A DNA stretch of 64,000 nt, from the NCBI GenBank assembly GCA_963712115.1, contig CAVQGX010000031.1, positions 294,438 to 358,437 on the forward strand, read 5' to 3'. Source of the stretch: an uncultured delta proteobacterium (lineage in GTDB: Bacteria; Desulfobacterota; Syntrophobacteria; BM002). Shown piece after piece: positions 215-12,162 of the stretch (position 1 is the stretch's first letter; the number at the start of each line of letters is the position of its first letter). Position numbers and translations under genes: made by a program. The notes beneath the pieces were generated by a model, which saw only the letters and a list, made by a program, of their open reading frames with translations, did no database searches and had not been told where the DNA came from.

Positions 215-322
215 ATGCAGTAGTTCTAACTTAAGACCAGCGATGAGGACGGCTGGAAAAATCCCGGGCAGATCAAACATAGATGTGATAATCGAGGAGC
301 TGGCCGGGAGATCTTGCCTAAC

Positions 323-925
323 ATGGCCAGAGAAACAGGAGCCGCGGCTGTGATCAAGAGTTTGATAGACCGGCTTTTCAAGAAAAAACCCGGACACAAG
401 CGAGTAAATATCAGCGGCAGAAAGCGGCTGGGTTTAGCCAGACGCTTGGAAAGATATGGTGAGGCTGCAGCCCTGGCACAGGCAGGGTTGCAGGATGTAG
501 CCCAAGAGATAATCCGTCGCGAGATTCAGGAACGTCCAAGAATCCTGGTGGTGGGAAGTGAGGACGGGTTTTCCCGGCCCCTGGTTGATTACGCCATAGG
601 GCTAGCCAAGCGCATGAAATATGAGATTGTCGCCCTGAACTGGGCGGACATCGCTACTGAGGCTCCCGAAAAGCTCAATCCCTATCGGGAGGAATTACTC
701 GAGGAGTTCAAGGCAAGAGCGGCTAAGGCAGTCGAGCTACTAGCCTCGCGCGCCGCTGAAGAAGGTGTACCCCTTCGGCATGTGGTCAAGTCAGGTGGGC
801 TGAGCACTAGCGTTCGTGAGCTGGAAAAGGAGGTTAGCCGCTTAAGCTTTGTCCTAACTGAATCGGAGCCAACCCGAGAGTTGGGATTGGAGACATCGAT
901 TCCGGTCTTCTGTATCAACAAGTAA
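323..925 (+). CDS. USP-like (adenine nucleotide alpha-hydrolase fold) hypothetical protein
   Basis: ILVVGSEDGFSRPLVDYAIGLAKR...RAAEEGVPLRHVVKSG resembles a degenerate USP domain; ATG at 323 chosen over TTG at 314. Confidence 0.6.
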   Translation: MARETGAAAVIKSLIDRLFKKKPGHKRVNISGRKRLGLARRLERYGEAAALAQAGLQDVAQEIIRREIQERPRILVVGSEDGFSRPLVDYAIGLAKRMKYEIVALNWADIATEAPEKLNPYREELLEEFKARAAKAVELLASRAAEEGVPLRHVVKSGGLSTSVRELEKEVSRLSFVLTESEPTRELGLETSIPVFCINK

Positions 926-994: not shown

Positions 995-1108
995 AGGCTC
1001 AAGGCTGAAGGCACAGGGCACAAGGCAAGAAAAATCAAATAAAACCTATCTTCTCCTTATGCCTTGCGCCTTATCTAAATCCGCAATCCGCAATCCGAAA
1101 TTCGCAAT
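995..1108. repeat. Heptamer tandem elements: AGGCNNA arm, inverted CCTTRYG arm, then AATCCGC run
   Basis: aggctca aggctga aggcaca gggcaca aggcaag ... ccttatg ccttgcg cctta; aatccgc aatccgc aatccga aattcgc. Confidence 0.8.
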
Positions 1109-1254: not shown

Positions 1255-3252
1255 ATGGCATTTTTTCGCAAGTCAGAAGAAAAGCAACAGTTTGAGGACC
1301 TTGAGCTGCTGCGCCAGGAAATCCTCAAGGCGAAGATGGCTCCTTCGGTAGAGGGTTACGCTGTCAAAGAACTGGATAAGCTCGAAAAGACTCCGGCGGA
1401 AGCAGCCGAATACGCCATCGGCATCAACCATCTGGAATACCTGGTGTCACTCCCATGGAATGTCCATACTGAGGACAACCTCGATCTCCATCATGTTGAA
1501 AACGTTCTCAACAGAGAACACGCAGGTCTCCCCCTGGTGAAAGAGCGAATCCTTGAGTACCTTGCGGTTCGCACTCTGAAAATCCAAAGGGATTTTCGCC
1601 TCCTGGTGGTGGACGACGAAGAAATCACTCGAGCCAATCTGCAACACATCCTGGAGAAGGAAGGCTACCAGGTGGCCGCTGCTACAAATGGTGCTGAAGC
1701 CTTGGAGAAAATGGAGAAGGCTTCCTTCGATCTCGTTCTCACCGACCTGCTGATGCTAAAGGTCGGAGGGATGGAGGTTCTCCAGCAGGTGAAGGATCGA
1801 TATCCCCAAACCGACGTGGTTATCATTACCGGATTCGCCACGGTGCCATCCGCAGTGGAAGCGCTACAAAAAGGTGCCTACCACTACCTGGCCAAGCCGC
1901 TCAAGATCGATGAGGTAAGGAGCACGGTGAGCCAAGCGCTGGCCAAAAAACAAAAGGCGCACAGACCTAAAGGTCCAGTGCTCTGCTTTGTGGGGCCGCC
2001 GGGCACAGGCAAGACCTCCTTAGGAAAATCTATTGCCTCAGCCATGGGGAGAAAATTTATTCGCTTGGCTTTGGGTGGGATGAAAGATGAAGCTGAAATC
2101 AGGGGACATCGTCGCAGTTACGCCGGAGCCATGCCCGGACGGATCATAGATGCCGTCCGTCGGGTCGGGTCCAAGAACCCGGTTTTTATGCTGGATGAGA
2201 TCGACAAGGTGGGCCAGGACTTCCGGGGCGACCCGGCCTCCGCCCTTCTCGAAGTATTGGACCCCGAGCAGAACGAGCACTTCCTGGATTATTACCTGGA
2301 TGTGCCCTTTGACCTTTCCGGCGTGATGTTTATCGCCACCGCCAATCTGGTGGACCCTATCCCCAGGCCTCTGCTCGACCGGATGGAGCTCTTGGCTCTG
2401 CCCGGATATACCGATGAGGAAAAGAAACGCATTGCTCTCGAGTTCCTCGTCCCCCGGCAAATCGAAACCTCGGGCCTTTCCACCTCTCCCCCCGAGTTTA
2501 CCCCGGAGGCGGTGCTGAAAATTATCAGAGAGCACACCAGGGAGGCCGGGTTGAGGAATCTCGAGCGGGAGATCGGCTCGATTTGCCGCAAGATCGCTCG
2601 AAAAGTTTTGCAACAAGGAGGAAAACAGAAATCGCTGATCGTCACTCCCGAGTTGGTGGAGGAATATCTCGGGCCAAGGAAGTTCTACTACGAGGTTGCC
2701 GAGGCCAAAGATCGGATCGGAGTGACCACTGGCTTGGTCTGGACTGAAACAGGTGGGGATATCGTCTTTGTTGAGGCCACCAAGATGAAAGGAAATAATA
2801 AGTTGATCCTCACCGGCTCCCTGGGAGAGGTCATGCAGGAATCGGCCCAGGCTGCCTTAAGTTACATCCGGAGCAACGCCGACCACTTCAAAATTGACCA
2901 GGATTTTTTCTCCGAGCATGACATCCACATACATGTACCTGCCGGCGCCATTACCAAGGATGGGCCCTCGGCAGGGCTCACCATAGCCATGGCCCTGATC
3001 TCGCTTTTGGCAGGCAGGCCTGCAAAGAGGCAGGTGGCCATGACCGGCGAACTGACCCTGACTGGCAGGATTCTCCCGGTTGCCGGGACCAGGGAAAAAC
3101 TGCTGGCAGCTCGCCGGGCAGGAGTAAAGACTGTTGTCTTTCCTGAGAAAAACAGAGTTGATCTCGATGACCTTGGCGCTGATATTCGTGCGGATATTGA
3201 GGTGATTCTCACCGGTAGTGTCGAGGAGGTGGTAGATCTCGTATTGCGATAG
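1255..3252 (+). CDS. lon: Lon (endopeptidase La) variant lacking the N-terminal substrate domain, with a REC domain inserted just before the Walker A strand
   Basis: LPW...ERILEYLAV, Walker A GPPGTGKT, Walker B FMLDEIDK, catalytic DGPSAG and REKLLAA; REC (LLVVDDE...FDLVLTD...AKP) at ~1591-1950; candidate extended -10 TGCTATACT at 1201. Confidence 0.92.
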   Translation: MAFFRKSEEKQQFEDLELLRQEILKAKMAPSVEGYAVKELDKLEKTPAEAAEYAIGINHLEYLVSLPWNVHTEDNLDLHHVENVLNREHAGLPLVKERILEYLAVRTLKIQRDFRLLVVDDEEITRANLQHILEKEGYQVAAATNGAEALEKMEKASFDLVLTDLLMLKVGGMEVLQQVKDRYPQTDVVIITGFATVPSAVEALQKGAYHYLAKPLKIDEVRSTVSQALAKKQKAHRPKGPVLCFVGPPGTGKTSLGKSIASAMGRKFIRLALGGMKDEAEIRGHRRSYAGAMPGRIIDAVRRVGSKNPVFMLDEIDKVGQDFRGDPASALLEVLDPEQNEHFLDYYLDVPFDLSGVMFIATANLVDPIPRPLLDRMELLALPGYTDEEKKRIALEFLVPRQIETSGLSTSPPEFTPEAVLKIIREHTREAGLRNLEREIGSICRKIARKVLQQGGKQKSLIVTPELVEEYLGPRKFYYEVAEAKDRIGVTTGLVWTETGGDIVFVEATKMKGNNKLILTGSLGEVMQESAQAALSYIRSNADHFKIDQDFFSEHDIHIHVPAGAITKDGPSAGLTIAMALISLLAGRPAKRQVAMTGELTLTGRILPVAGTREKLLAARRAGVKTVVFPEKNRVDLDDLGADIRADIEVILTGSVEEVVDLVLR

Positions 3253-3279
3253 GGACCTTGGCTTTGGGCTTCATTCACC

Positions 3280-4656
3280 CTACGGAGACGCCTCCTCGGA
3301 GTTTTCTTCCAATCCCCAGCGCTTTAGCTTACGCCACAGAGAAACCCTATCGATCCCCAGTACTTCGGCAGCCCTCGTCTTATTCCCGTCCACCTGTTTC
3401 AAAACCCAGCTGACATATTCCACCTCATTCTCCTCCAAGGTGGGGAAACGCAGGCTGGCTTGCCGGTAGACCTTGAGGGAATACTGCCCTAGTTCCTGGG
3501 GGAGGTGCTTCGCCAGAATTTCCTCTTCGTTACAAAGGACAACAGCCCGCTCAACTATGTTTTCCAGCTCACGAATGTTCCCCGGGTATTCGTAGTTCAT
3601 CAGGACTTCCATGGCTTCATCCGAGAAACCCTTGATGGATTTTCCCTGCGCCTCGGCATAACGTGCCAGAAAGTGATGCGCCAGCAGCGGGACGTCGTCC
3701 CTTCGCTCCGCCAGCGGAGGAAGGTGGAGACTGACCACATTGAGACGGTAGAAAAGATCCTTGCGGAATCCGCCTGTTTCCACCTCTTTATTCAAATCCT
3801 TGTTGGTGGCGGCAACAAGGCGGATGTCAACTTTGATAGGTTGGGTTCCCCCCACGCGAAGTAAGGACTTCTCCTCTATAACCCGCAGAAGTTTTACCTG
3901 CATGGAGGCAGGCATATCGCCAATCTCATCAAGAAAAACAGTACCCCTGTTTGCCGCCTCCAGAAGACCTATTTTGGTGGTGGTAGCCCCGGTAAAGGCA
4001 TCTTTCTCGTGACCGAAAAGTTCATTGCTGAGGAGCTCCTCAGTGAAAGCCCCGCAGTTGAAAGCGACAAAACGCTCGTCGGCGCGGCTACTCTGGCGAT
4101 GAATCGCCCGGGCGAACAGCTCTTTGCCCGTACCTGTCTCGCCAAAAATGAGGACATTACAGTCGGTGGGCGCAATCTGGCCTACCAGCGCGACAAGCTC
4201 TTGCATCTTCCTGCTCTTGCCTATGATAAAGGGGATTCCCCCTCCTCTGTGGTAATCCCGCTTGAGTACCCGAAGCTCGTCTTTGAGAGCCTTTTTTTCC
4301 AGGGCTCTCTTGGTGATCATCCGCACTTCATCTATCTTGTAAGGTTTGGGTATGTAGTGATAGGCTCCCTTTTGCATTGCTTCAATGGCGGTGGCCACCG
4401 TGGCGTATGCGGTGAGCATAACCACCTCGGTATCGGGATACTGCTCTTTTGTCCTGGCCAGAACCTCCATGCCATCCACCTGCTTCATTTTCAGGTCGGT
4501 CATGACCAAGTCGAATTCAGTATTCGACAGCTTCTTGAGGGCACTAATTCCACTATCCGCCGTTGCAACATCATAACCATCTTTTCTCAGAATGTGTTCG
4601 AGGTTCTCCCTGGCGATGGCCTCGTCGTCTACGACAAGTATCCGGCTTTTGTTCAT
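3280..4656 (-). CDS. Sigma54-dependent response regulator (NtrC/AtoC family: REC-AAA-Fis HTH)
   Basis: ILVVDDE receiver, GETGTGKE, DAFTGA variant of the GAFTGA loop, FLDEIGDM, C-terminal AAEVLGIDRVSLWRKLK. Confidence 0.95.
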   Translation of the reverse strand: MNKSRILVVDDEAIARENLEHILRKDGYDVATADSGISALKKLSNTEFDLVMTDLKMKQVDGMEVLARTKEQYPDTEVVMLTAYATVATAIEAMQKGAYHYIPKPYKIDEVRMITKRALEKKALKDELRVLKRDYHRGGGIPFIIGKSRKMQELVALVGQIAPTDCNVLIFGETGTGKELFARAIHRQSSRADERFVAFNCGAFTEELLSNELFGHEKDAFTGATTTKIGLLEAANRGTVFLDEIGDMPASMQVKLLRVIEEKSLLRVGGTQPIKVDIRLVAATNKDLNKEVETGGFRKDLFYRLNVVSLHLPPLAERRDDVPLLAHHFLARYAEAQGKSIKGFSDEAMEVLMNYEYPGNIRELENIVERAVVLCNEEEILAKHLPQELGQYSLKVYRQASLRFPTLEENEVEYVSWVLKQVDGNKTRAAEVLGIDRVSLWRKLKRWGLEENSEEASP

Positions 4657-4662
4657 CTGACT

Positions 4663-6120
4663 TTAGTCTCCCAAGTGCTTTTGGTCTCTGAGCGGGAGCC
4701 GGATGGTGAAGACGCTGCCCTCGCCTACCCTGCTCACCACGCTAAGGGTGCCACTATGCTGTTCGACGATTCCGTGGGCCACCGATAAGCCGAGTCCAGT
4801 ACCATACCCAACCTCTTTGGTGCTAAAGAATGGGTCAAAGATGTGTGGCAAGTGATCTTCGGGGATACCGCAACCGGAATCCTTGACCAGGATTTCCACC
4901 TGTTTCGCTCTTTTATCCTCTACGGCGGTTATGGTGATGCGACCCACCTCGTTGGGCATGGCCTGAGAGGCGTTCACCAAGAGGTTGAGGAGGACTTCTT
5001 GCAGCTTTTGAGCATCTACATAGATATCCAACTCCTCGGGAATCTCGGTGAAGATTTCCACTCCTGCCGGCAACTGGCTGGAAATCAGTCTGGTGGTCCT
5101 GATTACCAGGTTTTCAAGGTTCACCCAATTCTCCTGGAATTCCCGCTCCCGGGAAAATTCCAGCAGACCCTTAACGATGTCGCGGGCTCTATCCACCTCT
5201 TGATCAATGTTGTTGAGGAGTTTTCTAATAAACTCTGAATTGCCGTCAGCGATTTCCTCCTGCAGAATCTGGCAAGAGGTGGAGATATTGTTCAAGGGGT
5301 TATTGAGCTGGTGGGCGATTCCGGATGTCAGAACTCCCAGGGAGGAAAGCTTCTGAGCCTGTACGAGTTGATCCTGCCGCTTCTGAAGTTCGCTGATCAT
5401 CTTGTTGAATGCCTCCACCACAGACTGGGTCTCATCCCTAGTCTGCACCACCGGCAGCGGTTTGAAATCTCCCTTGGCGATCCGCTGAGTGGTCCTCTCA
5501 ATAACCGTGAGCGGCCCGACAATTTTCCGACTGACCAGCACAATCAGAAACAAGCCGAGAAGCAGGAGGATAGAAGCGGAGAAGAGAATCTTGGTCTTCA
5601 GGGATTTGACAATTTGCTGAACCCGGGTGTGCTCGAAGTCGGATAATCGCAAAGACAAATCAACCAGATCCTTGCCGACTTGCCTGATCTCTGCCTCGAT
5701 CTCTTCTTTAGATCGTGGGCTTGGATTGTCCTTGCCTTTTTCGGCCACAAGCTCCCGCAGAAGCTGACCATAACGCTCCATCTCGTTCTCGAGTCTTTCC
5801 AGATAGGTAACGCCCTTCAAACCCCTGACGTCAGGGTGTATGCGCAGATAGACCTCCTTTCCTCTTTCAAGGTAGGCAAGGGCCTCTTCATGGTTATCTC
5901 TTTGGCCGTAGAGAAGGAAATTTTTTTCATAACGCCTGGCTTCCAAGAGGGTATCGTGGAGTTCATGGCCTTTAACCACAAATTCAATTTTGCGCTCAAT
6001 TGTTAAAAGGTTGCGGTAGGCAATGATTCCCACACCCACAAAGGCAATAATGGACATGAAAAAGCCCAAAATAACTTTCTGTCGAATGGAGAGATGTATC
6101 TTGGAGATGAATTTCACCAT
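4663..6120 (-). CDS. Membrane sensor histidine kinase (2 TM, periplasmic helical sensor, HAMP, HisKA, HATPase)
   Basis: H-box GIAHQLNNPL, N-box NLLVNA, DSGCGI, DPFFSTK, GTGLGL. Confidence 0.95.
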   Translation of the reverse strand: MVKFISKIHLSIRQKVILGFFMSIIAFVGVGIIAYRNLLTIERKIEFVVKGHELHDTLLEARRYEKNFLLYGQRDNHEEALAYLERGKEVYLRIHPDVRGLKGVTYLERLENEMERYGQLLRELVAEKGKDNPSPRSKEEIEAEIRQVGKDLVDLSLRLSDFEHTRVQQIVKSLKTKILFSASILLLLGLFLIVLVSRKIVGPLTVIERTTQRIAKGDFKPLPVVQTRDETQSVVEAFNKMISELQKRQDQLVQAQKLSSLGVLTSGIAHQLNNPLNNISTSCQILQEEIADGNSEFIRKLLNNIDQEVDRARDIVKGLLEFSREREFQENWVNLENLVIRTTRLISSQLPAGVEIFTEIPEELDIYVDAQKLQEVLLNLLVNASQAMPNEVGRITITAVEDKRAKQVEILVKDSGCGIPEDHLPHIFDPFFSTKEVGYGTGLGLSVAHGIVEQHSGTLSVVSRVGEGSVFTIRLPLRDQKHLGD

Positions 6121-6297: not shown

Positions 6298-6535
6298 TTT
6301 GGCCACTAGAGGTGGCCGTCATAACGCTGCGCTGTCATTATGCCTTCGGCGTCATTTATGTCATTAGGTCAAGTATCGCTTCGCTGTCTCCATGCTCGTC
6401 CCCATGCGGGTAACCTAATGACGGCCGCGAGGCCAAATGACGGGCTTCAGCCCAAATGACGCCGAAGGCAAATGACCATTAATGACGGGCGCCAGCCCTA
6501 TTGACGGCGCAGCCGAATGACGCGGAGCAAATGAC
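6298..6535. repeat. Modular GTCA/TGAC mini-hairpin array, copy 1
   Basis: Left arm of gtcat units, right arm of aatgac units separated by GGCCGCGAGGCC, GGGCTTCAGCCC, GCCGAAGGC, GGGCGCCAGCCC, GGCGCAGCC, GCGGAGC. Confidence 0.9.
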
Positions 6536-6553
6536 CTGTTAGTGCCTAGTGTA

Positions 6554-7283: not shown

Positions 7284-8645
7284 TTACTCTTTCTTCTCCT
7301 CTTCCTCTTCAGCCGGTTTCTCTTCTTCAGCTTCCGCCGGAGCTTCAGCTGCATTTTCCGCCTCTTCTGCGACCTCTTCGGCGGCGGCTTCTTCAGCTAC
7401 CGGTTCTTCCACAGCCGGAGCAACCACAGCGGCTGGAGCTGCCACCGGGGCAGCCGCAACTACCTCCACTCCAAAGGGACGATTGATGTAAGCCGCATAG
7501 CCCATGGCCACCGTCCGGTAGACCAAGTGGGCCAGCTTGCTATAGGGCAGATAACCGATAATGTAAAAAACGCACACCAGGTGGATGAAGTAGATGAAGT
7601 AAGCGAACCAGCCAGCGTCTGCCACCCGAGAAAGCCAAGTCAAAAAGCCGGTGACCACAATGCCCAGGATGGCAAGAATTAGAGACCAATCCAGGTAGGT
7701 TGTAGTGCTCTCAGCACCCTTGTCTTTGTAGCGGTTTGAGATCACCAGAGCGATGCCTATGAGCAGGGCCGACCCCGAAGCCAAGGCGAGCAACTTCACC
7801 GGGTTGATAAGACTGTAGGGAGGTGCCAAAAAGTCAACCCGGACAATGTAGAGGGCGAGAAAGCCTATGTTGGTCACAATGAACAAACCAATGAAGCCCA
7901 GGAAAACCAGAAGGTGTGATTGATAGCGATCCCGGTTGGTAATGCACAGCTTGAACTTGTCGTGAAAGAGAATGGTGGGAATCGCCGAGATCAGGCTCTT
8001 TACATAGTCTGCCATAACCAAAGGCTTGTCTTCCGCATAACCCTCCCTGATGGAATTGGTGTGGATGCCCTGGAGGAAGTTCCACACTCCGAAACCCAGA
8101 GAGACTGCGGCCAAGGCCGTGAAGGTAATGAAGATTACATCCACCAAGTAGAGGGGGAAGAACTCCCGCAATTCTACCGGCCCTTCAGGAATGTGAAGAT
8201 GCCCGGTCATCAGGAGTCCCAACAAGAGGACCACCACCGGAATGGCCAGCATGATTGGCCAATACTTCGCCTCACCCACGACTTTCCCCATGAAGTTGGG
8301 AAAGGCAAAATGCCTGAAGCTCATGGCTCGAATTGCCCGCAGAGTGTCTCCGGGACGGGCACCTCTGGGGCAGTGGGCGGAACAGTCATTGCAGTAGTGG
8401 CAAAGCCAGACATCAACACTGTTAACCAGTCTGTCCTTGAGGCCCCACTGTGAATAGATCATCTCTTTCCGTGGATAAGGTTTTTGCTCAGGAGCAAGCT
8501 CGCAAACCACCGAGCAGGTGGCACACTGAAAGCACTTTTTTAGTGTGTCTCCCCCTGCCGCTTTGAGTTCCCGAACGAAATCCAGATCGGGCTCCACCAG
8601 GGTCGCAGCTTTGCTCTCTACTTGCACTGCGGATTCCTCTGCCAT
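7284..8645 (-). CDS. qmoC: Quinone-interacting membrane oxidoreductase subunit C (HdrC/HdrE-like)
   Basis: CFQCATCSVVC and CHYCNDCSAHCP Fe-S motifs, multiple TM helices, LPYSKLAH; follows qmoB. Confidence 0.95.
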   Translation of the reverse strand: MAEESAVQVESKAATLVEPDLDFVRELKAAGGDTLKKCFQCATCSVVCELAPEQKPYPRKEMIYSQWGLKDRLVNSVDVWLCHYCNDCSAHCPRGARPGDTLRAIRAMSFRHFAFPNFMGKVVGEAKYWPIMLAIPVVVLLLGLLMTGHLHIPEGPVELREFFPLYLVDVIFITFTALAAVSLGFGVWNFLQGIHTNSIREGYAEDKPLVMADYVKSLISAIPTILFHDKFKLCITNRDRYQSHLLVFLGFIGLFIVTNIGFLALYIVRVDFLAPPYSLINPVKLLALASGSALLIGIALVISNRYKDKGAESTTTYLDWSLILAILGIVVTGFLTWLSRVADAGWFAYFIYFIHLVCVFYIIGYLPYSKLAHLVYRTVAMGYAAYINRPFGVEVVAAAPVAAPAAVVAPAVEEPVAEEAAAEEVAEEAENAAEAPAEAEEEKPAEEEEEKKE

Positions 8646-8657
8646 GTTATCTACCTC

Positions 8658-10895
8658 CTAGAAACCCTTATAAGGATTGGGACCAACTTCATCCAGCCTT
8701 TCTGAGAACTCATTTATAGCCCTGGGCAGGTCGGGATACTCGCTGATCTGCAGCTGAATCAGCTGCACCCGGTCGGACTCGAGGGCCAAGCGGTTCAGGG
8801 TTTCCGCCACCTTGGACAACCGAATCTCTGCCAGCTCGCTCCCCTTCATAAAGTGGCACTGGTAATTATCCCCATGACGGCATCCTAGGAGCAAAATACC
8901 ATCGATGCCCTTGGAGAGGGAGTCGGCGACCCAGATGAGGTTCAAACCTCCCAGGCAGCGCATGGGAATGACCCGGGCCCAGGGACTGATTTGCTGCCGG
9001 GTGATCCCCACCATATCCAGAGCCGGATAGGCGTCGTTTTCGCAGGCCAGGATGATAAATCTCGGCTTCTCGTCCCATTCGTCCGGCACGTTGATGCTCT
9101 TGATGATGCTACCGATCATCCTAACCGAATAATTCTTGAAGGAGATGATCCGTTCCGGGCAGGCACCCATGCAGACTCCACACCTGCGGCAGCGGGTAGG
9201 GTTCGGTAGAGGATTGGCCTTTTCGTCTTCATTGATGGCGCCGAATGGACATTCAACTGTGCAACGCTTGCACTGGGTGCACCGGTCCATGAAGAAATCA
9301 GGATAGCTCAGGTCTCCGGAACGTGGATGGACGGCCATACCCTGGGAGGTGAGCTCCACACACTGGATTGCCTTTAGGGCGGCTCCGGTAGCATCATCGA
9401 TGGTGCTGGGCCCGTCCAGGGGAGCCCGCACGCTGCCGGCATAGTAAATGCCGGTGCGCCGCGACTCGTAAGGGAAGCAGACGAAGTGTGAGTCCGGGAA
9501 CCCATTGTGCAAAGGTGGCGCCTCGGGACCCTGGCGGTATTCCAGGTTGAGCATGTTGGACTTGATAATAGTGTCGGCGGGAACCGCCACTTCTTCCGCA
9601 GCAGCACCTTCTTCTTCCAGGTCCAGACCCAGGTCGATCTCCTCACCGATGGCGGCTCTTGTCACCATACCGGTTGCCAGAACCAGCATGTCCACCTTCA
9701 GCTGAATTTTCTCACCAAGTAGGGTGTCATTTACCTCGAGAACCACATTCTTGTTCTCATCCTCGCTGATTGAGCCCACCTCGCCTTTGGTGAGAAATAA
9801 ACCTTCATCCTCTTGCATACTCTTGTAAAAAAACTCATAGTGCCCAGGAGTTCGCATATCCTTGTAGATGATGTAGGCCTTGGCGTCTTTATCCTGAAGC
9901 CGCAAATATTTGGCCTGCTTTAGAGACTCGATGCAGCAGGTCGAAGAGCAATACGGTAGATGGTTCTCATCCCTGGAGCCAGCGCAGAGGATAAAGGCGG
10001 CTGATTTCACCGGCCGGCCGTCAGAAGGTCGCACTATGGTACCTTTTAAGGCGAGCTCTTCTATTGTTTCATTGGTAACCACATTTTTGCAGGTCCCATA
10101 GCCAAGATGCCCAAGGTTCTTGGCCTCATATGGCTTGGCGCCGGTGGTCACCACAATGGCTCCGACTTTTTCGCTGACCACATTGCCGTTCTGCTTGATG
10201 TGTGCGGTATAGAGACAGGGTGCACCTTCTATCTTCTCCATGGTGGCCCCGGTATAGATCTTGATATTATCCTGCCCTTCTACCGCCTTGATCCGCTCGG
10301 CAATATCCACATCTTCCAAGTCAGTGTAAGGGTGCTTCAGGGGAGCCTGTTTAAACACTTTATTCATCCAGCCCCCCAGCTGGGCTGCCTTCTCCACCAG
10401 CACCACCTCGTAACCGGCCTTGGCCGCTTCAGCAGAGGCGGTGATCCCGGCCAGGCCGCCTCCCACCACCAGCAGCCTTTTAGACATTTCCTCTTCCGGC
10501 TTGAAAGGCTCGAGGGGCTCCATGTTTTGCGCCTTGGTTATTCCCATCCTCATGTAGTCTTCGGCCAACATCTGGGTGTCTTCTTCCCCCGCGGGCTGGC
10601 ACCAAACCACTTGCTCCCTGAGATTTACCCGGTCAAGCACCACACTCAGCCCGAAGTCAAAAACATCCTGCATGACCCGGGGGGAGCAGGCAGCAACCAC
10701 TACTGTGTTTACCCCATCATCACCAGCCAAATCTTCCTTGATGACCTGTACTCCCTCTTTGCTGCAAAGGAACTCGTGGTCCTTGCACACCGCCACACTG
10801 AATTCGTCGTTGGCAACCGTAGCCAGGGCTTCCACATCCAAGGAGTCCCCGATGCCACAGCCCTTGCATATATAAACTCCTATCTTCTTCTCCAT
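8658..10895 (-). CDS. qmoB: QmoB (HdrA-like flavoprotein with ferredoxin and MvhD domains)
   Basis: VVGGGLAG, CAGSRD..LPYCS, CTQCKRC..CP, ACENDAYPALD, ends GPNPYKGF. Confidence 0.96.
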   Translation of the reverse strand: MEKKIGVYICKGCGIGDSLDVEALATVANDEFSVAVCKDHEFLCSKEGVQVIKEDLAGDDGVNTVVVAACSPRVMQDVFDFGLSVVLDRVNLREQVVWCQPAGEEDTQMLAEDYMRMGITKAQNMEPLEPFKPEEEMSKRLLVVGGGLAGITASAEAAKAGYEVVLVEKAAQLGGWMNKVFKQAPLKHPYTDLEDVDIAERIKAVEGQDNIKIYTGATMEKIEGAPCLYTAHIKQNGNVVSEKVGAIVVTTGAKPYEAKNLGHLGYGTCKNVVTNETIEELALKGTIVRPSDGRPVKSAAFILCAGSRDENHLPYCSSTCCIESLKQAKYLRLQDKDAKAYIIYKDMRTPGHYEFFYKSMQEDEGLFLTKGEVGSISEDENKNVVLEVNDTLLGEKIQLKVDMLVLATGMVTRAAIGEEIDLGLDLEEEGAAAEEVAVPADTIIKSNMLNLEYRQGPEAPPLHNGFPDSHFVCFPYESRRTGIYYAGSVRAPLDGPSTIDDATGAALKAIQCVELTSQGMAVHPRSGDLSYPDFFMDRCTQCKRCTVECPFGAINEDEKANPLPNPTRCRRCGVCMGACPERIISFKNYSVRMIGSIIKSINVPDEWDEKPRFIILACENDAYPALDMVGITRQQISPWARVIPMRCLGGLNLIWVADSLSKGIDGILLLGCRHGDNYQCHFMKGSELAEIRLSKVAETLNRLALESDRVQLIQLQISEYPDLPRAINEFSERLDEVGPNPYKGF

Positions 10896-10899
10896 CGGA

Positions 10900-12162
10900 T
10901 TACCTCCTCACCGTAGATTGAATGGCTTTGAGCGCTGCAGCAGTTGCATCCCGGTTGGCAGTTGCCACATCTAGCGGCTTTCTGGTGCATCCAGCAGCAT
11001 AGATCCCAGGTTTTTCACTGACAACAAAGCCGCTTTCGTCGTAGGCTACATCAGTTGGCACCTTAGCGGTGGCTGTACTGGGCTCCATGCCAGTGGCCAG
11101 CACCACCAGATCCACCTTTGCCTGGCTCTTGCTACCGCCGTAAATGTCTTCGGCCGTTACCACGATCTTGTCGCTGGCCGGATCTGCCTCAACCTTGGCA
11201 ACCTTTCCCTTGATGAGGGTGACATTATCTTCAGCTGCAACTTTGGTGTAAAACTCCTCATATTTGCCCAAAGCTCGAATATCAATGTAGAAGATGGTAA
11301 CCTTGGCATCGGGGAGCTGCTCCCTGATGTAAGTGGTCTGCTTCAGCGATGCCAAGCAGCAAATGTGAGAGCAAAAGGCCATGTAGTTCTCGTCCCGCGA
11401 GCCGGCGCACTGCACAAAGGCAACGCTTTCCACCGGCTTGCCATCGGCGGGGCGGACGATCTTCCCTTTGGTGGGACCATCAAAGGCTGCCAGCCGCTCC
11501 ATCATCACGTTGGTGATCACATTGGGGACCTTGCCGAATCCCAGATTCTCTATCTTGCTGGCATCGTAAGGATTCCAACCAGTGGCCCAGACAATGGACG
11601 CCACTTTGAGGCTCACGCTCTCAGGCTGCATCTCCAAATCCACCGCGTCGTACTTACAGGCCTCTTTGGCCTTGGTTGCCTCGTCCGTACCGATTATCTC
11701 CGGGGCAATCACATAGCGCATGGGGTAAGCCATGTCGTGGGGGAGATAGGCGGCTTTGATCTTGTCCATGTTGTAATTGTAATCGTTTGGAATTTCCGTG
11801 GTGACCACCTCAGCGCAGGCTCCACATGCAGTACAGTTCTCATTCACGTACCGCGGCTTGAGTTTGATGGTCACATCTAAGTTTCCTTCCTCTCCGGATA
11901 TACTTTCCACCTCAGCCATGGTGAAAGTCTTTATCCGGGGATTCTGTCTTATGCGACGGAAGTTGATTTCCAAGCCGCAATTGGGCGGGCAGAGTTTGGG
12001 AAAGTATTGGTTCAACTGCGCCACCCGACCGCCAAGGTACGGCCGCTTTTCAACAATAAAAACATCGCGGCCCGTCTCGGCCGCCTCCACCGCTGTGGTC
12101 AGGCCGCTGATGCCGCCGCCGACCACCAGGATACTTTGGGTCAAACCTTTTTCCTCAGCCAT
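10900..12162 (-). CDS. qmoA: QmoA (HdrA-like flavoprotein)
   Basis: ILVVGGGISG, YFPKLCPPNCGLEIN, VQCAGSRD. Confidence 0.96.
   Translation of the reverse strand: MAEEKGLTQSILVVGGGISGLTTAVEAAETGRDVFIVEKRPYLGGRVAQLNQYFPKLCPPNCGLEINFRRIRQNPRIKTFTMAEVESISGEEGNLDVTIKLKPRYVNENCTACGACAEVVTTEIPNDYNYNMDKIKAAYLPHDMAYPMRYVIAPEIIGTDEATKAKEACKYDAVDLEMQPESVSLKVASIVWATGWNPYDASKIENLGFGKVPNVITNVMMERLAAFDGPTKGKIVRPADGKPVESVAFVQCAGSRDENYMAFCSHICCLASLKQTTYIREQLPDAKVTIFYIDIRALGKYEEFYTKVAAEDNVTLIKGKVAKVEADPASDKIVVTAEDIYGGSKSQAKVDLVVLATGMEPSTATAKVPTDVAYDESGFVVSEKPGIYAAGCTRKPLDVATANRDATAAALKAIQSTVRR

Follow-up and report, generated by a model that had tools for sequence, protein, structure and literature searches.

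A LonA-type protease with a built-in receiver domain, encoded beside a histidine kinase and a sigma-54-dependent regulator that carries a closely similar receiver

The closest described relative of the locus reported here is the DVU3303/DVU3304/DVU3305 cluster of Desulfovibrio vulgaris, which was presented in 2011 as a 'three-component system', with the same hypothesis that we develop below, and whose genes are responsive to high pH, to heat shock and to stationary phase (Rajeev, 2011; PMC3333781). The corresponding regulon was given as DVU3302-3298 plus DVU3303-3305, with DVU3303-3305 marked as having no sigma-54 promoter (Kazakov, 2015; PMC4641369). The three genes are detrimental in 6.25 mM chlorate and all of their pairwise cofitness values exceed 0.9, and the target DVU3299, which is a putative transporter of anions, is important when chlorate is present (Trotter, 2023; PMC10102598). 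Here we describe a related locus in a 64,000-nucleotide stretch of DNA from an uncultured delta proteobacterium (hereafter the window; assembly GCA_963712115.1, contig CAVQGX010000031.1, positions 294,438 to 358,437 of the forward strand), in which a Lon protease contains a complete receiver (REC) domain within its polypeptide (REC-Lon) and is encoded next to a histidine kinase (HK1) and a response regulator of the sigma-54-dependent type (RR1). An earlier note on this DNA, made from the letters alone, had supposed that similar loci might already be annotated in other sulfate reducers; DVU3303-3305 bear this out, and the hypothesis of phosphorylation-gated proteolysis was already in print in 2011. 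The family is thus known genomically (2011) and genetically (2023).

The REC-Lon open reading frame (ORF) has two possible starts (1237/1255-3252, plus strand), and since its homologues are about 665 amino acids long and begin with MxFF, the ATG at 1255 is the likely start. The features of the gene, in window coordinates, are as follows.

1255-3252, plus strand: REC-Lon protease gene, 665 amino acids plus stop (ORF list, Pfam, NCBIfam, phmmer)
1255-1590, plus strand: helical region, residues 1-112, corresponding approximately to E. coli Lon 249-342 and ending in the ERILEYLAVRTLK helix (phmmer alignment)
1603-1929, plus strand: receiver domain, residues 117-225 (Pfam PF00072 Response_reg, E 5.8e-29)
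1744-1746, plus strand: codon of the phospho-acceptor Asp164
1981-2625, plus strand: AAA+ ATPase module and lid, residues 243-457 (Pfam AAA 243-378, Lon_lid 405-457)
1993-2016, plus strand: Walker A motif GPPGTGKT, residues 247-254
2641-3246, plus strand: Lon_C protease domain, residues 463-664 (Pfam PF05362, E 9.1e-82)
2968-2970 and 3097-3099, plus strand: codons of the catalytic dyad, Ser572 and Lys615

The protein scores 719.9 bits against the endopeptidase La model TIGR00763 (cut-off 608.05), in two stretches. Comparison with PDB sequences by phmmer aligns residues 14-107 with residues 249-342 of E. coli Lon (6u5z) and residues 234-664 with residues 343-771; as the flanks align to the adjacent E. 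coli residues 342 and 343, the receiver is a clean insertion of around 125 amino acids. The receiver scores 100.9 bits against PF00072, where the cut-off is 30.2 bits, and retains the acidic pocket (D120, D121), the acceptor D164, T192 and K214, which places it among response-regulator receivers. The features of LonA peptidases (MEROPS S16) are likewise present in the form of the model score, Walker A, Walker B (D314/E315), the pore-loop Tyr and the Ser-Lys dyad, with Ser572 aligned to E. coli S679 and Lys615 to K722, with the exception of the LON N-domain. The alignment starts at E. coli residue 249, so that the first 248 or so residues of LonA are missing; Pfam gives no match to the N-terminal substrate-binding domain (PF02190), and neither the ORFs nor the sequence of the 330-bp upstream gap contain a split-off N-domain gene. 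These results agree with the earlier note on the absent substrate-recognition domain, the complete inserted receiver and the intact Walker motifs and dyad. Pfam also finds no Sigma54_activat domain (PF00158) and no DNA-binding domain in the protein, which sets it outside the sigma-54 activators. Judged by its sequence, REC-Lon is a LonA-type protease that has no N-domain and has intact motor and protease residues.

The N-domain of LonA recognizes substrates, and its loss suggests a narrow client set. The genome holds two full-length LonA genes on other contigs (open frames of 819 and 788 amino acids), which makes REC-Lon a third, specialized LonA paralogue. A 247-amino-acid frame elsewhere in this genome (G000:C8:43928-44392, minus strand; G, C and L numbers are our handles for genomes, contigs and loci) matches the Lon family model at positions 24-204 only (E 6.8e-5), and may be a stand-alone Lon N-domain-like protein unlinked to the REC-Lon locus.

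An AlphaFold2 model of REC-Lon, calculated from a 40-sequence alignment (mean predicted local distance difference test score 82.2, predicted template modelling score 0.69), places five helices in the N-terminal region (residues 1-112). The last Lon helix (93-111) is followed after three residues by REC beta1 (115-119), and the helix REC alpha5, with 19 residues (218-236), stops five positions short of AAA+ beta1 (242-246), which in turn runs straight into Walker A. A Foldseek search with the model returned ordinary LonA chains at 38-40% identity (template modelling score up to 0.86, normalized to the target), and none of the 31 matches listed is a PDB Lon chain with a receiver. The closest solved relatives of the receiver itself, by phmmer against PDB sequences, are the NtrC1/NtrC4-type receivers 1zy2, 1ny5 and 3dzd. 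The model therefore suggests a receiver spliced rigidly between the helix that precedes AAA+ beta1 and beta1 itself, an arrangement that forms part of the overall scheme we regard as probable below.

A search with the junction-spanning residues 60-270 of REC-Lon as query recovered a conserved family. Among the matches listed there are at least 120 homologue clusters at 58-96% identity, all of which contain Response_reg; those of about 600 amino acids or more (mostly 665) also contain Lon_C, the shorter ones being partial or cut short, and the source records of the listed clusters name 'endopeptidase La' in metagenome-assembled genomes (MAGs) of Deltaproteobacteria/Thermodesulfobacteriota. In 401 genomes drawn evenly from the phylum, the present one among them, which represent 111 family codes, the whole junction is found in one open frame in 45 genomes and 15 family codes; one genome has two matches, and two further genomes have matches that are cut short. 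The named-genome matches listed, which are no census, have the full junction at 17 of at least 79 loci, with carriers such as Desulfobacter vibrioformis DSM 8776, Desulfovibrio sp. 7SRBS1, Syntrophobacter, Desulfonema and Desulfomonilaceae; carriers that do not belong to the phylum are MAGs of Nitrospirota/Thermodesulfovibrionales. One member of the family is split: at L086 (G008:C11), positions 9632-11651, REC-Lon is divided between overlapping ORFs of 254 and 434 amino acids, a frameshift or a pseudogene; the completeness of the genome concerned is 79%.

The catalytic residues of all three modules are strictly maintained, with D120, D164, K214, K253, T254, E315, Ser572 and Lys615 invariant in 46/46 family members. 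D121 is Asp in 43 of these and D314 in 45, position 192 is Thr in 43 and Ser in three, and the pore-loop Tyr289 is nearly invariant among homologues. Sixteen diverse junction sequences align across 211 columns with no gap, from which we infer fixed linker lengths on both sides of the receiver. RNA-library contigs from four runs in three studies cover Lon (across the REC junctions), RR1 and HK1 at 90-99% likeness; these contigs carry no information on strand, ends or level, and DNA carry-over is possible. It is in the light of these observations that an artefactual or inert receiver has to be judged, that is, either a chimera of the assembly or a dead pseudo-receiver that replaces the N-domain structurally. 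We find this barely credible, and nothing we saw speaks in its favour. The earlier note had reckoned with a fusion unique to one assembly, and a chimera is rejected by the recurrence of the same architecture and length in listed clusters from independent sources and in 45/401 genomes, and by RNA-library contigs from four runs that cover the gene across its REC junctions; the conservation of D120, D164 and K214, each in 46/46 members, speaks against a pseudo-receiver.

The genes next to REC-Lon are arranged as the earlier note had read them, with a USP-like gene (universal stress protein, USP), Lon, the sigma-54 regulator and the histidine kinase in this order. The string of plus-strand genes that ends in Lon begins 3.7 kb upstream of it, outside the window, and is described in the coordinates of locus L009 (contig C31:282438-301437), where the window coordinate equals the L009 coordinate minus 12000.

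L009 3076-7540 (G000:C31:285513-289977), minus strand, outside the window: second module, with a second kinase and regulator (HK2/RR2) at L009 4689-7540
L009 9545-9718, plus strand: 57-codon ORF
314-925, plus strand: USP-like ORF, 203 amino acids (Pfam Usp E 2.4e-4, 22.1 bits, below the 24-bit cut-off)
926-1254, no strand: intergenic gap of 330 bp between the USP-like ORF and Lon, with short repeats at about 1025-1108
3280-4656, minus strand: RR1, sigma-54-dependent response regulator, 458 amino acids (REC, Sigma54_activat PF00158 E 2.4e-70, HTH_8)
4663-6120, minus strand: HK1, histidine kinase, 485 amino acids (HAMP, HisKA, HATPase_c)

RR1 lies tail-to-tail with Lon, 27 bp apart, and by eye HK1 has two hydrophobic stretches ahead of its HAMP domain. 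The plus-strand string runs in the order 57-codon ORF, 102-amino-acid membrane ORF, TauE-family exporter, tandem USP, USP-like ORF (the last gene before Lon) and Lon, with TauE and Usp domains matched by Pfam. The tandem USP (L009 11359-12214, reaching window position 214) occupies two frames, with tblastn matches to residues 1-81 and 67-283; at other loci it is a single ORF of about 283 amino acids, and the split in this assembly appears to be either a frameshift or a sequencing error.

We compared neighbourhoods of up to 20 kb around REC-Lon, taken from 47 other genomes and annotated by BLASTP with the proteins of the present locus. The set comprises 47 loci, including the present one and leaving out L085, where Lon is cut by a contig end. 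The numbers of loci at which each gene is found near Lon are given below.

RR1-like regulator: 36/47 loci
USP-like gene: 34/47 loci
Full HK1-like kinase: 32/47 loci
TauE: 29/47 loci
Small membrane ORF: 29/47 loci
Tandem USP: 14/47 loci

REC-Lon is found together with the kinase, the sigma-54 regulator and the USP/TauE genes across 15 family codes, and the tie between Lon, the USP genes, the kinase and the regulator that the earlier note had drawn from one sequence is thus found at most of the loci. The commonest position of the RR1-like gene is tail-to-tail with Lon, as in the window (13 loci). The USP/TauE string is divergent from Lon at most loci and co-directional with it in the present genome. 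No protein of the cluster is better conserved than the exporter, with 70-76% identity for TauE across loci L040-L086 compared with 54-78% for Lon; TauE keeps these values across family codes in which the identity of Lon is 54-66%.

The resemblance of the Lon receiver to that of the convergent regulator, to which the earlier note had drawn attention, is the strongest in the genome. Among 78 other REC matches (E<=1e-8), the receiver of RR1 is the closest to that of Lon (59% identity, 145.8 bits), and the next reaches 46% (109.1 bits). A quick maximum-likelihood tree was calculated for 46 Lon receivers, 35 RR1-like receivers and 15 other receivers of this genome. It sorts the sequences by protein type and not by genome, with support of 96 for the RR1-like clade in the Shimodaira-Hasegawa-like approximate likelihood ratio test (SH-aLRT), a clade that also takes in the long-branch RR2, and the Lon and RR1 sub-trees mirror one another. 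Because the tree sorts by type, the likeness of the two receivers points to an old duplication inherited as a unit and not to recent copying; the phylogeny, which the earlier note had put forward as a check, accordingly places them as old sister groups joined at a weak node (SH-aLRT 76).

If both receivers dock to one kinase, pairs from the same genome are expected to be more alike than pairs from different genomes. Over 35 pairs, same-genome identity between the Lon and RR1 receivers is 52.1%, against 50.8% after shuffling, a value reached in 0/5000 permutations. At 21 presumed kinase-contact positions, fixed beforehand in alpha1 and the beta4-alpha4 and beta5-alpha5 loops, it is 64.9% against 61.5%, an excess of 3.5 points, and at the other 95 positions the excess is 0.9 points (reached by 67/5000 permutations); 1.8% of random 21-column sets match the excess of the contact positions. 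This co-variation within genomes lends modest support to a shared kinase.

The second module bears on the identity of that kinase. The HK2/RR2 pair lies on the minus strand, together with MgtE, further upstream, and because it is situated a short way upstream of the window HK1 is not the sole candidate. HK2 has 500 amino acids and is 37% identical to HK1, and RR2 is a sigma-54 regulator of 450 amino acids that is 50% identical to RR1. The module has a sigma-54-like element, TGGCACCAATCTTGCC, at L009 4489 (minus strand), preceded by GTTTCATAATGAAAC at 4551; downstream are a 162-amino-acid ORF and a TauE-family paralogue (309-amino-acid ORF, 30% identical to the main TauE by BLASTP), and the module has no Lon; an ORF of 279 amino acids also neighbours HK2/RR2. 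The Lon receiver could in principle be phosphorylated by HK2, or by an orphan kinase, in place of HK1, as the pair is encoded only a few kb upstream and the sequences are compatible with cross-talk. We consider this quite improbable, given that the receiver of RR2 is 41% identical to that of Lon (93.5 bits), compared with 59% for RR1, and that the kinases which accompany Lon at 32/47 loci are HK1-like and not HK2-like.

A second test of the contact surface is provided by three loci (L082-L084) at which neighbours of the RR1, HK1 or USP type are missing and Lon is preceded directly, on the same strand, by a Cache-type kinase of 627-650 amino acids. One genome (G061) has two REC-Lon paralogues, one in an HK-RR-Lon operon beside TauE/USP genes (L046) and the other behind the Cache-type kinase (L084), where the fetched stretch contains no RR1-like regulator. 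In the tree, the L082-L084 receivers form the sister group (SH-aLRT 92) of the receivers from L046 and L054, two loci with the HK1/RR1 context. Between the two groups, identity is 42% at the contact positions, compared with 67% elsewhere. For 130 reference pairs of similar background divergence the mean identity at the contact positions is 81% (standard deviation 9), and 0/130 are as low as 42%. To judge from these sequences, what happened in the Cache-kinase lineage looks like a rewiring of the kinase-docking surface after duplication.

These loci also help to evaluate the proposal that the receiver of Lon has its main role in tuning the phosphorylation of RR1, either as a phosphate sink or as a competitor, with the protease constitutively active. 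Branched two-component pathways with sink receivers are known, and the two receivers here share a contact surface and one linked kinase. We nevertheless hold a sink to be improbable: neither the gap-free splicing of the receiver into the AAA+ module at fixed length nor the conservation of the ATPase and protease catalytic residues in 46/46 members would be needed for it, and at the Cache-kinase loci REC-Lon is the only adjacent partner of the kinase, with no RR1-like gene in the fetched stretch.

The region that heads the small-ORF/TauE/USP string contains a sigma-54-type element, TGGCACGGTTGTTGAA, at L009 9473, and upstream of it two palindromes, GTTACAATTTGCAAC at L009 9291 and GTTACAATATGTAAC at 9379, which are 88 bp apart. 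Scanning 400 nt upstream on the correct strand, with a background density of 0.145 per kb-strand, we found sigma-54-like -24/-12 elements ahead of the USP/TauE string at 31/41 loci, where about 2.5 would be expected. The palindrome, GTTGCA-N3-TGCAAC, was derived by de novo word and dyad counts and occurs as paired sites at 37/47 loci; 33/38 pairs are spaced at 86-90 bp, against about 0.6 pairs expected, and 31 pairs fall within 700 nt of the Lon start. In this 4.9 Mb genome the strict palindrome is present exactly twice, both times at the REC-Lon locus. The locus thus has, as far as can be predicted, a target operon under sigma-54 control in which USP-type genes stand beside an anion-transporter gene.

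The origin of the Lon transcript is less clearly marked. At the thresholds used, this genome has neither a sigma-54 element nor an activator palindrome directly upstream of Lon or HK1, and the sigma-70 and terminator scans gave matches no more frequent than in shuffled sequences; a possible extended -10 is seen by eye in the 330-bp gap ahead of Lon. Lon may be read through from the sigma-54 promoter, at a distance of 3.8 kb, or may have its own promoter in this gap. The repeats in the gap (window 1025-1108) consist of GCAATCC/GCAAT units and draw in unrelated RNA-library contigs, with a summed contig depth of 40-65 compared with about 8 alongside and loose ends at 1077 and 1108; this looks like a dispersed repeat element. 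A further repeat region lies upstream of HK1 (window 6300-6545), with dense CGTCATT/AATGACG repeats in both orientations, at which RNA-library contigs accumulate and are interrupted (in run X17 the depth is 34-38, and there are several joints and loose ends). Beyond it, at 7284-10895 on the minus strand, are genes for a 453-amino-acid membrane protein, which has Cys-rich motifs and a tail that is acidic and rich in Ala/Glu, and then for a 745-amino-acid Cys-rich flavoprotein-like ORF, which we take to resemble Hdr/Qmo-type redox subunits of sulfate reducers.

Taken together, these data lead us to a four-step scheme of kinase, sigma-54 activator and gated protease that, as a whole, we regard as probable. 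In the first step, the membrane kinase HK1 would sense envelope or oxyanion-type stress, as the D. vulgaris phenotypes suggest. HK1 would then phosphorylate two sister receivers, that of RR1 and Asp164 of Lon. Phosphorylated RR1 is predicted to bind the pair of palindromes 88 bp apart and to fire the sigma-54 promoter, which would drive the 57-codon ORF, the small membrane ORF, the TauE-family anion exporter and the USP genes, in a string that continues toward Lon. Finally, phosphorylation of Asp164 may be relayed through the alpha4-beta5-alpha5 face, along alpha5 and the five-residue connector, to beta1 and Walker A, altering ATPase activity or ring assembly and in this way switching ATP-dependent proteolysis.

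The direction of this switch is a separate matter. Phosphorylation could turn the protease off, so that proteolysis and sigma-54 transcription would be anti-phased. The sequence does not fix the sign; the ClpXP adaptor CpdR is active in its unphosphorylated form, and in NtrC1/NtrC4-type proteins, which supply the best solved relatives of the Lon receiver, the off-state receiver keeps the AAA+ ring apart, so that the fold permits either polarity. We nonetheless judge an off-switch unlikely and an on-switch the more likely of the two, because in D. vulgaris the Lon, kinase and regulator mutants share a fitness pattern with cofitness above 0.9 (Trotter, 2023; PMC10102598), as would be expected if Lon needs the kinase; polar insertions in Lon could mimic this pattern.

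Several points weigh against this scheme, with HK1 as the kinase and phosphorylation as the on-signal. Polarity could account for the cofitness seen in D. vulgaris, where Lon seems to head a Lon-HK-RR operon, an order that we infer from the wording of the paper. HK2 sits 5.7 kb upstream of the Lon start. In the receiver tree, the node that unites the Lon and RR1 receivers against 14 others is weak (SH-aLRT 76), and the Lon receivers are not resolved as one clade beside the regulator clade. The 21 contact positions are presumed ones, chosen by hand after the HK853-RR468 complex; the small within-genome excess could derive in part from shared composition, and the rewiring of the Cache-kinase lineage is one event represented by three near-identical sequences. 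An RR1-like gene was not found in the fetched stretch at 11/47 loci, which include three of the Cache-kinase type, two on contigs below 10 kb and one cut by a contig end. No RNA contig among those listed bridges the gap before Lon (925-1255), so that Lon may or may not share a transcript with the USP string. Sigma-54-like elements that face Lon are not enriched (4/47 loci, about 2.7 expected), which agrees with the marking of DVU3303-3305 in the regulon paper (Kazakov, 2015; PMC4641369). Our literature search, from which subscription journals were absent, found no phosphotransfer, ATPase, protease or structural study of a receiver-containing Lon.

Bacterial regulated proteolysis is usually controlled via adaptors or substrate modification; if our reading is correct, a receiver hard-wired into the Lon motor would connect a sensor kinase directly with the degradation of proteins. 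Sulfate reducers and their relatives carry the family widely, and it is linked genetically to a stress and anion-export regulon. We put forward only tentatively, and think it somewhat more apt to fail than to hold, that REC-Lon is the first case of an AAA+ protease under direct gating by two-component phosphorylation, in which one kinase drives both the transcription of a sulfite/oxyanion-exporter and USP operon and a proteolytic switch running from REC alpha5 to Walker A, with the products or regulators of the same operon as clients. On this reading, the two-gene modules of Cache-type kinase and REC-Lon would be minimal two-component systems with proteolysis as their sole output. New in the present work, as read from the sequences, are the finding that the receiver of the neighbouring RR1 is the closest of 78 others in this genome, in what appear to be old sister lineages inherited together; the paired palindrome and sigma-54-type promoter predicted to head the small-ORF/TauE/USP string; and the rewiring of presumed contact positions in the Cache-kinase lineage. 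Also new are the co-direction of the USP string with Lon and the second kinase/regulator pair upstream of the window. The fixed-length REC junctions, the rewired contact surface and the paired activator sites offer handles for experiments.

Comparison with known systems sets REC-Lon between several well-described groups. Canonical LonA proteases (6u5z; B. subtilis 3m6a; M. taiwanensis 4ypl) share its AAA+ module, lid and Ser-Lys domain over about 430 residues (phmmer E ~1e-150), but have the N-terminal substrate-binding domain and have no receiver between the positions equivalent to residues 342 and 343. CpdR and RssB offer a functional analogy only, in that the phosphorylation state of a receiver controls an AAA+ protease; both are proteins in their own right that bring substrates to ClpXP, whereas the receiver here is covalently built into Lon, and it falls far below the corresponding NCBIfam cut-offs (75.5 against 180 for CpdR and 74.4 against 700 for RssB). 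Enhancer-binding proteins of the NtrC1/DctD type have, like REC-Lon, a receiver directly N-terminal to the AAA+ module; their output is transcription through DNA binding, while that of REC-Lon, which has no Sigma54_activat match, is predicted to be proteolysis.

The D. vulgaris system, as described, has in common with the present locus a sigma-54-dependent target operon with UspA-type and membrane proteins, including DVU3299, the counterpart here being of the TauE family, and a Lon operon that has no sigma-54 promoter, as Lon here has no sigma-54 element. The gene order differs: from the wording of the paper, Lon in D. vulgaris heads a Lon-HK-RR operon that is divergent from the USP string, whereas in the present genome the HK-RR operon and Lon converge, and upstream of Lon the USP/TauE string runs in the same direction as Lon. 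A receiver and Lon in one polypeptide, encoded beside a histidine kinase and a sigma-54 regulator, are found in the present genome too, and on the likeness in architecture and context to the published description REC-Lon is a member of the DVU3303-type family with a rearranged locus.

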